Virus genome (UHGV): UHGV-0304874
Reading direction: 5' to 3' (one strand)
From: a virus
Length of the DNA: 17,296 bases
Of the stretch, positions 2,408 to 17,296 are shown one piece after another. A model generated the notes under the pieces. The model was not told where the DNA came from. It saw only the letters and a program-made list of their open reading frames with translations, and did not search any database. Position numbers and translations under genes: made by a program. Every line of letters starts with the position of its first letter. Position 1 is the first letter of the stretch.

Positions 2408-3427
2408 TCATAATGTGTATTTGTTGAATCTAATTATTTCTTCGCCAACCCATTCATTAAGGGCAATAAAGCGAGATTGAATAGGAGTAAGCTCATTGCG
2501 GACAAAGACCTTTGCCACTTTCTCAATATCACCCAGCGACCCGACGTTCTCCGGCTTGCCGCCCATCAACTGAAAGGGGATGCGGTGCGCGTCCAGCAGG
2601 TCAGCGGCGCTGGCTTTTTTGATATTAAAAAAATCGTCCTTCGTTGCCACTTCACTGAGCGGGATAATTTTAATGCCGTCGGCTTTCCCCTGCGGGGCAT
2701 AGAGAAACAGATTTTTAAAGTTGTTGCGGCCTTTCGACTTGACCATGTTTTCGCGAAGCATTTCGATATCGTTGCGATCCTGCACGGCATCGGTGACGTA
2801 CATGATATATCCGGCATGCGCGCCGTTTTCGTAATACTTGCGGCGGAACAGCGTGGCCGACTCATTCAGCCAGGCAGAGTTAAGGGCGCTGAGATATTCC
2901 GGCAGGCCGTACAGCTCCTGATTAATATCCGGCTCCAGCAGATGAAACACGGAGCCGGGCGCGAAGGCTGTCGGCTCGTTGAAGGATGGCACCCACCAGT
3001 AAACATCCTCCTCCACGCCACGGCGGGTATATTTTGCCGGTGAGGTTTCCAGTCTGATGACCTTACCGGTGGTGCTGTAACGCTTTTCCAGAAACGCATT
3101 ACCGAACACCAGAAAATCCAGCACAAAGCGGCTGAAATCCTGCTGGGAAAGCCACGGATGCGGGATAAATGTCGAGGCCAGAATATTACGTTTGACGTAA
3201 ATCGGTGAGCTGTGATGCACGGCAGCACGCAGGCTTTTTGCCAGACCGGTAAAGCTGACCGGTGGCTCATACCATCTGCCGTTACTGATGCACTCGACGT
3301 AATCCAGAATGTCACGGCGGTCGAGTACCGGCACCGGCTCACCAAAGGTGAATGCCTCCATTTTCGGGGGGCTGGCGGTCATTGTTTTTGCCGCAGGTTG
3401 CGGTGTTTTCCCTTTTTTCTTGCTCAT
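2408..3427 (-). CDS. Q: Portal protein (P2 gpQ-like)
   Basis: 339-aa ORF starting MSKKKGKTPQPAAKT, recognised as P2 Q. Its ATG overlaps the P stop by 1 nt (TGATG). The last ~25 codons are noticeably AT-rich. Confidence 0.93.
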   Translation of the reverse strand: MSKKKGKTPQPAAKTMTASPPKMEAFTFGEPVPVLDRRDILDYVECISNGRWYEPPVSFTGLAKSLRAAVHHSSPIYVKRNILASTFIPHPWLSQQDFSRFVLDFLVFGNAFLEKRYSTTGKVIRLETSPAKYTRRGVEEDVYWWVPSFNEPTAFAPGSVFHLLEPDINQELYGLPEYLSALNSAWLNESATLFRRKYYENGAHAGYIMYVTDAVQDRNDIEMLRENMVKSKGRNNFKNLFLYAPQGKADGIKIIPLSEVATKDDFFNIKKASAADLLDAHRIPFQLMGGKPENVGSLGDIEKVAKVFVRNELTPIQSRFIALNEWVGEEIIRFNKYTL

Positions 3428-5372: not shown

Positions 5373-6227
5373 ATGGCAAAAAAAGTCTCAAAATTCTTTC
5401 GTATCGGCGTTGAGGGTGACACCTGTGACGGGCGTGTCATCAGTGCGCAGGATATTCAGGAAATGGCCGAAACCTTTGACCCGCGTGTCTATGGTTGCCG
5501 CATTAACCTGGAACATCTGCGCGGCATCCTGCCTGACGGTATTTTTAAACGTTATGGCGATGTGGCCGAACTGAAGGCCGAAAAGATTGACGATGATTCG
5601 GCGCTGAAAGGCAAATGGGCGCTGTTTGCGAAAATCACCCCGACCGATGACCTTATCGCGATGAACAAGGCCGCGCAGAAGGTCTATACCTCAATGGAAA
5701 TTCAGCCGAACTTTGCCAATACAGGCAAATGTTATCTGGTGGGTCTGGCCGTCACCGATGACCCGGCAAGCCTCGGCACGGAATACCTGGAATTCTGCCG
5801 CACGGCAAAACACAACCCTCTGAACCGCTTCAAATTAAGCCCTGAAAACCTGATTTCAGTGGCAACGCCTGTTGAGCTGGAATTTGAAGACCTGCCTGAA
5901 ACCGTGTTCACCGCCCTGACCGAAAAGGTGAAATCCATTTTTGGCCGCAAACAGGCCAGCGATGACGCCCGTCTGAATGACGTGCATGAAGCGGTGACCG
6001 CTGTTGCTGAACATGTGCAGGAAAAACTGAGCGCCACTGAGCAGCGCCTCGCTGAGGTGGAAACCGCCTTTTCCGCACTTAAGCAGGAGGTGACTGACAG
6101 GGCGGATGAAACCAGCCAGGCATTCACCCGCCTGAAAAACAGTCTCGACCACACCGAAAGTCTGACCCAGCAGCGCCGCAGCAAGGCCACCGGTGGTGGC
6201 GGTGACGCCCTGATGACGAACTGCTGA
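5373..6227 (+). CDS. O: Capsid scaffolding protein (P2 gpO-like)
   Basis: Track ORF 5307..6227; the P2-like N-terminus MAKKVSKFFRIGVEGDTCDGRVISAQDIQEMAETFDPRV starts at the ATG at 5373, giving 284 aa. Confidence 0.9.
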   Translation: MAKKVSKFFRIGVEGDTCDGRVISAQDIQEMAETFDPRVYGCRINLEHLRGILPDGIFKRYGDVAELKAEKIDDDSALKGKWALFAKITPTDDLIAMNKAAQKVYTSMEIQPNFANTGKCYLVGLAVTDDPASLGTEYLEFCRTAKHNPLNRFKLSPENLISVATPVELEFEDLPETVFTALTEKVKSIFGRKQASDDARLNDVHEAVTAVAEHVQEKLSATEQRLAEVETAFSALKQEVTDRADETSQAFTRLKNSLDHTESLTQQRRSKATGGGGDALMTNC

Positions 6228-8106: not shown

Positions 8107-8205
8107 CAACCGAATGCGCCCCGCGCCAGGGCGGCACGCCGGTCAGTGAGGGTGAATCACCTGACACTGCACCGGTGTCCACCGCCCGACTTTTCAGAGG
8201 TAGTC

Positions 8206-9714: not shown

Positions 9715-10140
9715 ATGAAGAAATTATCCCTTTCACTGATGCTGAACGTGTCGCTGGCACTGATGCTGGCACTGTCCCTGATTTACCCGCAGAGCGTGGC
9801 CGTCAGTTTTGTCGCCGCCTGGGCGATTCTGGCGACGGTTATCTGTGTGGTTGCCGGTGGTGTCGGCGTGTATGCCACTGAGTATGTGCTGGAACGCTAC
9901 GGGCGGGAGCTGCCGCCGGAATCGCTGGCCGTGAAGATTGTCGCGTCGCTGTTTTTACAGCCGGTGCCGTGGCGCAGGCGGGCAGCGGCTCTGGTGGTGA
10001 TGGTGGCGACGTTTATCTCGCTGGTCGCTGCCGGGTGGATTTTTACTGCGCTGATTTATCTTGTGGCGTCGCTGTTTTTCCGGCTGATACGTACGGCCTG
10101 CCGTCAGCGTTTTGAGGGGCGGGAACCATGTCAAAGCTGA
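9715..10140 (+). CDS. lysA: Lysis accessory membrane protein LysA
   Basis: 141 aa, very hydrophobic (MKKLSLSLMLNVSLALMLALSLIYP...), sits between K and lysB as in P2. Confidence 0.8.
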   Translation: MKKLSLSLMLNVSLALMLALSLIYPQSVAVSFVAAWAILATVICVVAGGVGVYATEYVLERYGRELPPESLAVKIVASLFLQPVPWRRRAAALVVMVATFISLVAAGWIFTALIYLVASLFFRLIRTACRQRFEGREPCQS

Positions 10141-11128: not shown

Positions 11129-11231
11129 GTTTAAGCGTTTTGAAGACCGGCTGGCCGACATTGTGCTCAACAGTACGCAGGCGTCTTTCTGTACTGAATA
11201 CCGCGTCGTGACCGGAGGCTCGGATGAGTGA
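11121..11231 (+). pseudogene. 36-codon remnant ORF at the S position: apparent in-frame fusion of the S start to the J end, with tail genes S, V, W and J absent
   Basis: ATG at 11121 overlaps the R stop by 8 bp and the stop at 11229-11231 overlaps the I start by 8 bp, the overlaps P2 has at R/S and J/I. Only 36 codons (MNEFKRFEDRLADIVLNSTQASFCTEYRVVTGGSDE) lie where P2 has roughly 2.8 kb. Confidence 0.55.
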
Positions 11232-13813: not shown

Positions 13814-14341
13814 ATGCAGCATTTAAAAAATATTACTGCGGGTAATCCAAAAACTGTTGCCCAATATCAACTGACAAAAAATTTTGATGTTATCTGGTTA
13901 TGGTCCGAAGAGGGAAAAAACTGGTATGAGGAAGTAAGTAATTTTCAGGAAGACACGATAAAGATTGTTTACGACGAGAATAATATAATTGTCGGCATCA
14001 CCAGAGATGCTTCAACGCTTAACCCTGAAGGTTTCAGCGTTGTCGAGGTTCCTGATATTACCTCCAACCGACGTGCTGATGACTCAGGTAAATGGATGTT
14101 TAAGGATGGTGCCGTGATTAAGCGGATTTATACGGCAGATGAACAGGAGCAACAGGCAGAATCACAAAAGGCAGCTTTACTTTCCGAAGCTGAATCCGTG
14201 ATTTTGCCGCTGGAACGCGCTGTCAGGCTGAATATGGCGACGGATGAGGAACGCAGCCGACTGGAAGCATGGGAACGCTACAGCGTTCTGGTCAGTCGTG
14301 TGGATCCTGCAAATCCCGAATGGCCGGAAATGCCGCAATAA
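13814..14341 (+). CDS. G: Tail fibre assembly chaperone (P2 gpG-like)
   Basis: 175 aa, starts 4 nt after the H stop; position and length match P2 G. Confidence 0.88.
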
Positions 14342-14509
14342 GTTGTATGAGCTCTGGTGTGAGCTTACATATCTATGGCACAGAGTAAAGCCTAATCTGA
14401 CAGTCCGTTCTGTGCCAGTAGCGGACGTTTGAATAAATTATTGATTAACTAAAGTTTTTGGCATTAAATTTTCAATTAAAATGTTCGCATTGATTTATTG
14501 GAGTAAATA

Positions 14510-14887
14510 ATGGATATACATGCAAAAAGAGTTGGCAGTCCACTTTATAAAATTATTATGTACTTAAATAAGTATGAAGAAGATACACTGGAAGACATAA
14601 AACTTCAGTTTCTTTTAAAAAATTTAAAAACTCATTTCAAGAAACTGTTTTATATGATTACTTACATTAATAAAATTCAAAAAGATGCTGAGTTCATCAG
14701 AAAACATGATGCAACATCAATTGTCAGCATTAGTGCTATTGAGTATTGCTATTATAAAATCAGCACGATATGGGATATTGCATATCAGATAGCTGATAAA
14801 TTAATTTTTCCAACTAAAAAAATGGCAACAAATATGATTACCTTGAAAATCATTTCCAGCAATATGCACAGGAATTTCCAGATTTGA
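14510..14887 (+). CDS. Hypothetical protein, 125 aa, AT-rich cargo in the G-FI (Z/fun-position) island
   Basis: ATG 5 nt after GGAGT (14500-14504); strongly AT-rich; no recognisable motif. Confidence 0.4.
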   Translation: MDIHAKRVGSPLYKIIMYLNKYEEDTLEDIKLQFLLKNLKTHFKKLFYMITYINKIQKDAEFIRKHDATSIVSISAIEYCYYKISTIWDIAYQIADKLIFPTKKMATNMITLKIISSNMHRNFQI

Positions 14888-15035
14888 ATTTAAAATGGTA
14901 TAAGGACTTTAATAAAATAAGATAGTTCATGGAGGGATAACAGTAAATCCTTATTATGTCAACGATGATAATATTAAAACAAAGATTTGTTTCCAAGCAT
15001 ATGACTCTGATCTAAACGATCTGATTCAACCTCAT

Positions 15036-15455
15036 ATGATGTATTCAAATAGATTCAATAACAATATTAATTTTGCTGATTACTATTTTACCTTTTATAC
15101 TCATCTTCTCTATTCATATCTTTTTGATTTTTTTGATTTTGTACTTCTTGAGCTAAACAAAGATAAATTACATGATTTAGACAATCTTATTCTTGATGAT
15201 ATACCGCACAAATTGTTTGGTGTTCATCATGAAACATGGTTGTTATCTGATGTTGATCAATTTATGAAAATTACAAGAGAAATGATTTCCCTACAAATAG
15301 CTGATGGTTGTTTAAATAAAATTGAGAAAATACCCTCAAGTGATATTGAACATTTTTTTAACAACTTTCCATTTTGTCTTATGACAAAGGTTAGCTCCGG
15401 AGATTGGGTATTGGTTGAGGATAAAGCGGCTGAAACACAGTCATCGGACACTTAA
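15036..15455 (+). CDS. Hypothetical protein, 139 aa, AT-rich cargo; weak translation signals, possibly a gene fragment
   Basis: ORF with tandem ATG ATG at 15036 but no clear Shine-Dalgarno; the frame is open upstream to 14916 without a start; acidic Asp/Phe-rich N-terminal half. Confidence 0.33.
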   Translation: MMYSNRFNNNINFADYYFTFYTHLLYSYLFDFFDFVLLELNKDKLHDLDNLILDDIPHKLFGVHHETWLLSDVDQFMKITREMISLQIADGCLNKIEKIPSSDIEHFFNNFPFCLMTKVSSGDWVLVEDKAAETQSSDT

Positions 15456-15472
15456 ATTTTTTTTGTGCCAAA

Positions 15473-15615
15473 GTCTACTCCTCGCTCGTCACAGGCTTTG
15501 GCATTCGTTTCAACAACCAAGTGATAGCATATATTGTGACCTGCACCCCGTTGATTCATACATCCTCGATGTAAGCAATCCCTTGAGAACGTCCACTCCT
15601 CGCTCTTAGCAGATC
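15473..15615 (+). repeat. Pair of 15-bp direct repeats (GTCTACTCCTCGCTC at 15473-15487, GTCCACTCCTCGCTC at 15601-15615) in the gap between the AT-rich ORFs and the nuclease-like ORF
   Basis: Read directly: 14/15 identical, 128 bp apart, at the composition boundary between two cargo blocks. Confidence 0.4.
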
Positions 15616-15749
15616 ACACGGTTCTTCAAACGATCCGCTTCGTACCAGAAACGAACTTTTATCTCAAATTTGAACCTTTTAGTGGATGACGACGTTTGTG
15701 TCTTCAAGTAGTCTTAAAAGCATGCGGATAGTGCATAGGAAAAGCAGAA

Positions 15750-16586
15750 GTGATCGATGACCCACTACCAGAAAACTGGCAAGACCTCCAGACAGGGGTC
15801 CAACGTATATTCCGTAATGTTGGCTTGTTTGCAGAAGTCGAGGTCGATTTAGAAACCCCGCGTGGCTCGGTGAATGTGGATGTTCTTGCTACAGATGTTA
15901 GGAGCGTGGACAAAATCAGATACATTGTGGAATGCAAAAACTGGGGTAGTTCTATACCACAGACGGTGGTCCATTCGTTCACCACGGTAATGCATGAAAC
16001 CGGGGCTAATATTGGATTTATTATTTCAAAGCACGGGCTTCAGCAGGGTGCTAAACAGTACACTCAAAACACCAATATTATTGGGATGACATACCTTGAG
16101 TTCCAAAAAAGGTATTTTGAGGCTTGGTGGAATAGATACTTTTGTCCACGTATCGGTGATGCTGCAGACGAACCGCTTCAGTACGTCGAACCAATCAACT
16201 CTAAACGAGATCGCGAATACGCCAAGCTAAGCCTTCAAGCACAAGAGAAGTTCGATCAGTTAAGGCAAGAGAAAGGTGTATCAGTAATGGTTCTCTCTAT
16301 GCTCAATTACAAGTTTATGTCGAAAGCATTAAACACTGGTAACTTGCTGGAAGTCCCAAATAATCTGGATGATTTTAAGAACAGAGTTCTCTCCCGAATA
16401 TGTCCTCACATTGAATGGCAATGTGATACGTACAGAGAGCTGCTAGAGCTCATCTTGCAATACTTATCAGTCACAAAAGCAGAGTTTGATGCAATATTTG
16501 GTCGGGCCATCTTTGAACCGCCAAGTAGTATCACGGGGGTTACGGCTGAAGGTCCCCCTTTAGACGATGGTATTTATCATCATTAG
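15750..16586 (+). CDS. Predicted PD-(D/E)xK nuclease, Mrr-like catalytic domain at the N-terminus, with a ~150-aa C-terminal region of unknown function
   Basis: 278-aa ORF with GTG start 9 nt after AGGA. N-terminal pattern GLFAEVEVDLETPRGSVNVDVLATD ... YIVECKNW ... GFIISKHGLQQGAKQY resembles the Mrr-type restriction endonuclease catalytic core (acidic residues plus E-x-K). Confidence 0.5.
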   Translation: MIDDPLPENWQDLQTGVQRIFRNVGLFAEVEVDLETPRGSVNVDVLATDVRSVDKIRYIVECKNWGSSIPQTVVHSFTTVMHETGANIGFIISKHGLQQGAKQYTQNTNIIGMTYLEFQKRYFEAWWNRYFCPRIGDAADEPLQYVEPINSKRDREYAKLSLQAQEKFDQLRQEKGVSVMVLSMLNYKFMSKALNTGNLLEVPNNLDDFKNRVLSRICPHIEWQCDTYRELLELILQYLSVTKAEFDAIFGRAIFEPPSSITGVTAEGPPLDDGIYHH

Positions 16587-16608
16587 TTTCATACATAAAC
16601 CATGCTCC

Positions 16609-16640
16609 CGCATGTCCGCATGTCCGCATGTCCGCATTTC
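16609..16640 (+). repeat. Tandem 8-bp repeat (CCGCATGT x3, then CCGCATTT) just downstream of the nuclease-like ORF
   Basis: Read directly: CCGCATGTCCGCATGTCCGCATGTCCGCATTT. Confidence 0.7.
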
Positions 16641-16844
16641 GCTCAAAGCAGACTGTCAGATTTGATAGCGTTTGGGCTATGTAAATTGTCAGTTGGAAAA
16701 TGAGTGAGTGCAAATCATGGCAGGCTGGCGGATTACCCGCCTTTTCTTTGTCTGTTGTTTCATCCCCTGACCAGCCAGGTCAAATAGCGTCTCATGCTCT
16801 GCACAACAGAAAATAGTTGCACCCATTAACCACGGAGTTAAACG

Positions 16845-17296
16845 GATGAGTGACTATCATCACGGCGTGCAGGTGCTGGAGATTAACGACGGCACCCGTG
16901 TCATTTCCACCGTATCCACTGCCATTGTCGGCATGGTCTGCACGGCCAGCGATGCGGATGCGGAAACCTTCCCCCTCAATAAACCGGTGCTGATTACCAA
17001 TGTGCAGAGCGCAATTGCAAAGGCCGGTAAAAAAGGCACGCTGGCGGCATCGTTGCAGGCCATCGCTGACCAGTCAAAACCGGTCACCGTTGTCGTGCGT
17101 GTGGAAGACGGCACCGGCGACGACGAGGAAACGAAACTCGCGCAGACCGTTTCCAATATCATCGGCACCACCGACGAAAACGGTCAGTACACCGGACTAA
17201 AAGCACTGCTGGCGGCGGAGTCGGTAACCGGTGTTAAACCGCGTATTCTCGGTGTGCCGGGACTGGATACCAAACAGGTGGCTGTTGCACTGGCAT
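16845..17296 (+). CDS. FI: Tail sheath protein (P2 gpFI-like), N-terminal 150 aa; continues beyond the window
   Basis: ATG at 16845, 8 nt after GGAG; translation [61 protein letters not shown] is P2 FI-like; open to the window end, so absent from the ORF track. Confidence 0.9.

Follow-up and report, generated by a model that had tools for sequence, protein, structure and literature searches.

The virus genome UHGV-0304874 was analysed as a window of 17,296 nt, which represents the late-gene half of a P2-like Escherichia coli prophage. At positions 15750 to 16586 of its plus strand the window carries a gene for a putative standalone DNA endonuclease of the Mrr_cat type, which forms a one-gene cassette between the P2 genes G and FI and probably serves the prophage as a defence gene. 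The activity of the protein as a nuclease, its role against phages and the way in which it is controlled are inferred, the defence role being drawn from the genomic context. It belongs to the defence candidates that consist of a single nuclease protein and is a sound choice for experiments, although it will hardly surprise a specialist.

The prophage and its cargo slot

In the left part of the window, the portal gene (2408 to 3427, minus strand) was identified via Pfam as the only gene of this block checked in that way, and the genes P, O, N, M, L, X, Y and K as well as the lysis genes were recognized by the size and order of their ORFs. The right part contains R, I, H and G, followed by the start of FI. 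The slot is bordered on the left by gene G for tail fibre assembly (13814 to 14341, plus strand; Pfam Caudo_TAP, E = 5e-35) and on the right by the 5′ part of the tail sheath gene FI (16846 to 17296, plus strand). The homology to the P2 core stops at position 14433 and restarts at 16628, so that the cargo comprises positions 14434 to 16627, and because of this break the nuclease gene is located inside the G-FI cargo slot.

This G-FI (Z/fun) slot is a documented defence hotspot (PMC9519451). The flanks of the slot were found in 1,681 of 5,426 complete E. coli genomes, only eight of which have the same cargo. The other E. coli cargo in this position is annotated as SIR2, Shedu, HNH, FRG, DUF4145, S1 peptidase or an acetyltransferase with an HTH protein. 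Both the G-FI cargo position, for which the break in P2 core homology was decisive, and the exchange of defence cargo in this slot, of which SIR2, Shedu, HNH, FRG and DUF4145 in the compared E. coli prophages are examples, had been proposed in the original prediction and were verified. The entire island is common to eight complete E. coli genomes with an identity of 98–99.7%.

Compared to the 99.8% identical E. coli prophage L001, 2,294 bp are deleted from the window, including S, V, W and most of J, and the deletion junction is located at 11151 to 11157 with a 7-bp overlap. With S, V, W and most of J gone, baseplate assembly should fail, and the prophage is therefore defective. The nuclease gene is intact in this defective prophage, while the neighbouring cassette has decayed.

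The first 2,400 nt of the window, before the portal gene, correspond to hotspot 1 of P2 (the old/tin position) and carry plus-strand ORFs of 85, 89 and 156 aa. A significant Pfam match was obtained for none of these three ORFs; the 89-aa ORF has a sub-threshold match to a zinc-ribbon/Lar restriction-alleviation profile (E = 0.004).

The nuclease gene and its product

The ORF (15750 to 16586, stop codon included) begins with a GTG start codon and encodes 278 aa. The start is conserved, since MIDDP opens every homologue in the alignment. In near-identical E. coli prophages the same ORF is labelled "restriction endonuclease" by RefSeq, and six other E. coli genomes contain it with 100% identity over 889 nt. 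The upstream leader (15662 to 15749, plus strand) accompanies the gene in several unrelated contexts and presumably contains its own promoter and ribosome binding site. In a promoter and terminator scan, the region before the gene gave only weak sigma-70-like matches and no convincing promoter of this type, and the sole terminator-like hairpin on the plus strand (16727 to 16741) is located within the conserved P2 flank. No RNA family was found on the island by an Rfam search, which thus gave no hint of an RNA antitoxin.

The Pfam profile Mrr_cat (PF04471) matches aa 9–111 of the protein (15774 to 16082, plus strand) with an E-value of 4.3e-11 and 43.4 bits. As the curated gathering threshold is 21 bits, this is not a chance match, and the profile is also above threshold in distant relatives of the nuclease. 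The motif residues of the PD-(D/E)xK core are D44 (VDV; codon at 15879 to 15881, plus strand) and E61-C-K63 (IVECK; codons at 15930 to 15932 and 15936 to 15938). In an alignment of 26 relatives D44 and E61-x-K63 are invariant, and a second block from T114 to Y145 (YLEFQxRYFEAWWxRYFCPxxGDAAD) is as invariant as the catalytic residues. E31, D44, E61 and K63 are unchanged in all 36 unique sequences, down to an identity of about 45%.

An AlphaFold2 model computed from the family alignment (pLDDT 86.7, pTM 0.80) consists of an alpha/beta core (aa 10–114), a 32-residue helix (aa 115–146), a helical bundle reaching to aa 250 and a short tail, and the nuclease is predicted by it to have the alpha-beta-beta-beta-alpha-beta fold of restriction endonucleases. 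It had been predicted that this 278-aa ORF opens with an Mrr core of the PD-(D/E)xK fold and continues into a long part without assignment. The first statement agrees with the position of Mrr_cat at aa 9–111, the fold is supported by the profile match, the model and structural matches, and for the remaining residues, about 165, no match was found in Pfam, NCBIfam or PHROG.

The C-terminal helical domain (aa 115–250; 16092 to 16499, plus strand) is acidic to neutral and not DNA-binding-like; with a pI of 5.2 the whole protein is acidic, and none of its domains is basic. The first long helix of the helical domain (aa 115–146) matches the catalytic core in conservation, whereas aa 161–250 are more variable. 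The least constrained part is the C-terminal tail (aa 251–278; 16500 to 16583, plus strand) with the motif ISGVTxDGPPL, which is missing from distant relatives of about 255 aa. The median dN/dS was 0.07 for the nuclease, 0.09 for the helix at aa 115–160, 0.17 for aa 161–250 and 0.27 for the tail, and all four segments are under purifying selection (dN/dS 0.07–0.27), which points to a functional gene. Diversifying selection on the helical region was considered as well and rejected, as the dN/dS values show merely a more relaxed purifying selection. Comparison with PDB structures revealed no similarity of the helical domain to a known sensor, and when PDB sequences were searched using the family profile, only noise was obtained (E > 0.6).

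Size and distribution of the family

In total, 360 relatives were gathered from 5.8 billion proteins. Essentially all of them are 270–280 aa long and align over the full length, with identities of 60–97%. Their hosts belong to Enterobacterales, Pseudomonas, Vibrio, Kangiella, Marinomonas, Psychrobacter and Paraburkholderia, and proteins with more than 90% identity occur in E. coli, Enterobacter, Serratia, Proteus, Pantoea, Klebsiella and Morganella. A profile of the helical region matched 98 proteins out of 1.84 billion representatives. All but three of the full-length matches have about 240–290 aa with the domain at about 112–255, and the remainder are short fragments; in those of the 98 matches that were examined, Mrr_cat precedes the helical domain. 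According to this profile search Mrr_cat and the helical domain form one fixed architecture in a small family, and the helical domain is, judged by the same matches, not a module shuffled between effectors.

The family is rare, with 16 carriers among the 5,426 E. coli genomes, and it was absent from all 50,697 sequenced phage genomes searched. Both counts speak against a role in defence.

In wastewater plasmids of about 60 kb (H63–H68) from Klebsiella, E. coli and Shigella, an unannotated stretch of 222 bp was detected, whose product matches only the final 74 residues of the nuclease (aa 204–277) with 52.7% identity and which is apparently a gene remnant.

Proposed activity and control

The enzyme would be a Mg2+-dependent DNA endonuclease composed of a core (aa 1–146), a helical bundle (aa ~147–250) and a short tail. 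It would be harmless in the lysogen and would cut incoming phage DNA, or the DNA in the infected cell, which amounts to superinfection exclusion. The helical domain would contribute oligomerisation and control and thereby hold the nuclease off the host DNA; the invariant helix at aa 115–146 together with the bundle may best be read as an oligomerisation and control module.

Beside the nuclease, neither a conserved partner gene nor a cognate methyltransferase was found in the 39–41 loci compared; Dam-like methyltransferases are present only in some Proteus contexts, at a distance of about 2–4 kb from the nuclease gene. Since there is no cognate methyltransferase and yet more than 90% identity across genera, host methylation cannot be the means of self-protection, and as these genera have different methylomes, the protein is not a classical Type II enzyme. 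The nuclease would be either inactive until infection or directed only against DNA that its hosts never make.

The second of these possibilities corresponds to a Type IV-like enzyme, a constitutively active dimer that would cut only DNA with non-host modifications and use the helical domain for dimerisation and a part of its specificity. A solitary Mrr_cat nuclease which has no conserved methyltransferase, is tolerated by many host genera, resembles MspJI and AspBHI in its core and bears the RefSeq name "restriction endonuclease" is consistent with such an enzyme, but a recognisable reader of modified bases (Mrr_N, SRA or PUA-like) is missing, the helical bundle at the C-terminus is acidic to neutral, and no PADLOC Type IV model was matched at E ≤ 0.1. 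A Type IV-like mode of action is regarded as rather unlikely, though still as an alternative to be taken seriously.

Because of the missing reader domain, a nuclease gated by an infection cue, following a Shedu-like logic, is favoured over the Type IV-like enzyme; this gating is quite possible, though it falls somewhat short of probable. Can2 and Card1 are nucleases that are switched via an attached domain, and the gated reading fits the similarity of the core to both of them. In its most specific form it would mean a new single-protein immune nuclease, in which the helical domain is an infection sensor that responds to a phage protein or nucleic-acid cue and releases or assembles the nuclease, which is conceivable but doubtful. 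The label "sensor" is a guess, given the purifying selection on the domain, its lack of similarity to known sensors and its acidic to neutral character, and the domain could equally be an oligomerisation or specificity module.

If the gene is protective, it represents a compact one-protein nuclease system of 278 aa with an unclassified regulatory domain, and if the sensor reading is true, a new sensor module for the repertoire of defence nucleases. As such a system it would be easy to study, with a single gene, a clear catalytic triad for mutation and a structural model of high confidence. If it is not protective, it only adds to the annotated "restriction endonucleases" whose role is unknown.

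A single gene in unrelated contexts

The island was compared with every fetched locus to delimit the DNA that is common to other contexts. This DNA starts between 15537 and 15731 and ends between 16619 and 16627, so that the mobile module consists of the nuclease gene, 19–213 bp upstream and about 35 bp downstream. Eight other kinds of context share only the region from about 15731 to 16619. By clustering all ORFs of the 39–41 loci, no conserved neighbour family was found beyond close relatives, and a pairwise comparison across the contexts showed the upstream genes to be mutually unrelated. The nuclease gene is, as far as these alignments can tell, a standalone single-gene cassette, the standalone status having been predicted; the single gene, with no conserved neighbour, is the unit common to unrelated contexts.

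Among the prophages, a lambdoid one of E. coli carries the gene next to the replication gene P and to genes for HEPN and SEC-C proteins; in Proteus lambdoid prophages it lies between the Q region and the lysis genes, beside TIR or AAA_15/methyltransferase genes. Seven E. coli genomes contain a 74% variant at the integrase end of a yfdPQR prophage. In enterobacterial islands the gene lies beside umuDC, SRAP and IS, or beside HNH_2 and hsdM. Pseudomonas synxantha carries it in an integrase/AlpA/DUF927 island together with Abi_2, and Raoultella in an integrase/AlpA/Bro island. In Psychrobacter and its relatives it follows DUF2971, and some of these loci are located downstream of a cluster that includes a gene for a 1060-aa protein. 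Plasmid copies were found on a 111-kb plasmid of Buttiauxella and a 3.6-kb plasmid of Pantoea. In Kangiella the gene is a small insert amid housekeeping genes with no obvious defence neighbour, and such relatives argue against a defence function. As a whole, the homologues are not confined to housekeeping contexts, in line with the original prediction, and occur in prophages, integrase islands, plasmids and defence neighbourhoods. The family thus resides, alone, in mobile elements and defence neighbourhoods.

The neighbourhoods of 28 diverse loci were scanned, each locus being represented by its four closest neighbours (112 proteins). Recurrent matches were DUF2971 (Pfam), the PADLOC single-gene candidate PDC-S31, mad3, ATPases of the AriA/AbiL/LmuB/PtuA type, PDC-S06, GajB, SRA and DUF2806. 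DUF2971 was among the nearest neighbours in five of the 28 loci, and the PADLOC models of PDC-S31 were matched by up to six neighbours. In a Psychrobacter locus (L053) DUF2971 is the immediate upstream neighbour of the nuclease homologue on the same strand. The recurrence of DUF2971 would mean that the two genes either share defence islands repeatedly or are functionally paired in the lineages concerned.

At the corresponding upstream position in three further loci (L018/L021 and L007), the ORFs look like DUF2971 by sequence; the protein of L007 has no BLAST similarity to those of L018/L021.

The island itself is composite, with a G + C content of 25–30% from 14400 to 15450, followed by the nuclease module with 43–47%. 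The AT-rich part (25–30% G + C) contains the neighbouring cassette (14510 to 15455, plus strand), a pseudogene of a 317-aa protein. Intact relatives are single proteins of 317 aa in Vibrio, Aeromonas, Dickeya, Pantoea and Aliarcobacter. The frame is broken at two sites in the window, by a frameshift in a poly-A run (14816 to 14822) and by a 7-bp deletion at 14915, and for this reason the gene was classified as a pseudogene. An interpretation as a two-gene operon with ORFs of 125 aa and 139/192 aa was rejected, because both are pieces of one 317-aa gene; in RefSeq its relatives are given either split into 125 and 192 aa or as one gene. The 317-aa protein is without a Pfam family. It has an R-x4-H motif (RNKIVH) and a sub-threshold match to HEPN_RiboL-PSP (E = 0.18), and based on these two features the pseudogene may once have been a HEPN-type defence gene.

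The upstream genes bear on the question whether the nuclease is a component of a multi-gene system, that is, a toxin-antitoxin or restriction-modification system or a defence system of two genes that includes the upstream one. Genes on the same strand are indeed present upstream in the window (the 125/192-aa ORFs), in L047–52 (258 aa), in L056 (256 aa) and in Proteus (215 and 111 aa), and the positions of DUF2971 in L053 and in the five loci, together with the matches to PDC-S31 in up to six neighbours, point in the same direction. However, these upstream genes are mutually unrelated and are left out of the shared DNA module, the upstream gene of the window is a pseudogene next to an intact nuclease gene, and in L002 the nuclease gene stands alone, with opposite-strand genes on both sides. 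A multi-gene system is thus considered very unlikely.

Repeats at the cassette boundaries

The slot is bounded by imperfect inverted repeats with arms of 33 nt (14394 to 14426 and 16630 to 16662), which are 76% complementary. The left boundary repeat is located on the minus strand in the conserved P2 flank, inverted relative to the right arm, and the same inverted arms are present in P2 with different cargo (L054). At the right boundary (16608 to 16662, plus strand) a threefold tandem repeat of the 8-bp sequence CCGCATGT (16608 to 16639) runs into the motif ATGTCCGCATTTCGCTCAAAGCAGACTGTCAGATT. The boundary motif has a length of about 30 nt, reads approximately ATGTCCGCnnnTCGCTCAAAGCAGACTGTCAGA and forms a small palindrome of its own (GTCCG...CGGAC). 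At the P2 junction, the point where the homology of the module stops and that of P2 starts, the first 8 nt of the motif are triplicated. Two internal copies on the plus strand, one after the pseudogene cassette (15471 to 15497) and one ahead of the Mrr cassette (15590 to 15614), lie between the two cassettes.

In every enterobacterial context examined, including Proteus, Morganella and Phytobacter, the motif is found about 27 nt past the stop codon of the nuclease gene. It occurs in inverted pairs around each cassette, and this also holds for enterobacterial prophages and islands that are unrelated. The neighbouring cassettes of L048, with HNH_2 and glyoxalase genes, are flanked by copies in opposite orientation; copies were located at 8112 to 8134, 9866 to 9933 and 10781 to 10855 of L048 and at 5839 to 5865 of L047. 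In L047 and L050–52 an IS is inserted within the boundary motif.

The motif was found in 2,015 of the 5,426 E. coli genomes. An assignment to the high-copy REP-like elements was rejected due to the median of one copy per motif-bearing E. coli genome. As the loci of the family in Pseudomonas, Vibrio and Psychrobacter lack the motif, it belongs to the enterobacterial cassette traffic and not to the protein family. [quoted passage not shown] As far as can be judged from that account, the motifs of about 30 nt are probably the same as the inverted repeats that Nilsson et al. 2004 described.

A selfish or mobility nuclease that cuts at or near the motif of about 30 bp for a homing-like insertion of its own cassette would agree with the constant distance of the motif from the stop codon and with the triplicated motif start at the P2 junction, but is most improbable, since the same repeats flank nuclease-free cargo (the P2 cargo of L054, the HNH_2 and glyoxalase cassettes of L048) and the members from Pseudomonas, Vibrio and Psychrobacter have no motif, yet the protein is under purifying selection. 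As a repeat-bounded one-gene module that is found in the P2 slot, lambdoid prophages, islands and plasmids, the putative defence nuclease would be a clean example of how defence cargo travels.

Comparison with known systems

Profile, motif and fold agree in assigning the protein to the Mrr_cat/PD-(D/E)xK superfamily of Pfam. The best structural match is the Archaeoglobus fulgidus protein AF1548 (PDB 1y88), which shares only 15% identity with the nuclease, has a length of 184 aa compared to 278 aa and is without a counterpart of the helical bundle of 130 residues or the tail. As its own function is unknown, AF1548 offers no mechanistic guidance.

The core resembles the cores of MspJI and AspBHI. 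In contrast to E. coli Mrr, MspJI and AspBHI, the nuclease is N-terminal here, and there is no winged-helix or SRA-type reader; profile and structure searches detected neither an Mrr_N winged helix nor an SRA or PUA-like domain. Due to the missing reader domain, the protein is not a member of the Mrr- or MspJI-type Type IV enzymes. It is not a restriction-modification or toxin-antitoxin pair either, as it has no partner.

Shedu (SduA, DUF4263) is likewise a single-protein immune nuclease, with a C-terminal nuclease and an N-terminal regulatory domain. The protein described here has the reverse domain order and an unrelated accessory domain, and neither DUF4263 (Pfam) nor a PADLOC Shedu model was matched. 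Since DUF4263 is missing and the domain order is reversed, the protein is not Shedu. The core is also similar to the nuclease domains of VC1899 and of Can2 and Card1, two ancillary nucleases of CRISPR systems; unlike these, the protein has no CARF or SAVED domain and no CRISPR or CBASS neighbourhood.

A search of PADLOC 2.0 resulted in a single weak and partial match, to PDC-S02 (21.5 bits, E = 3e-5). PDC-S02 is a single-gene candidate with an Mrr_cat-like segment and differs in architecture from the nuclease, as the match covers 65 residues of the catalytic core at positions 236–301 of the 346-position model. NCBIfam gave no match to the nuclease and PHROGs one weak match. No published test of the family was found in Rousset 2022, Vassallo 2022, DefensePredictor and its supplements, an integron-cassette study and a preprint on the P2/P4 repertoire.

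The closest parallel in terms of position is Z/fun of P2, the original cargo of the same G-FI slot, which is bounded by the same inverted repeats and is a different gene from the nuclease. Like the role proposed here for the nuclease, fun is a non-essential cargo gene with an exclusion function, which blocks T5 (PMC8987985).
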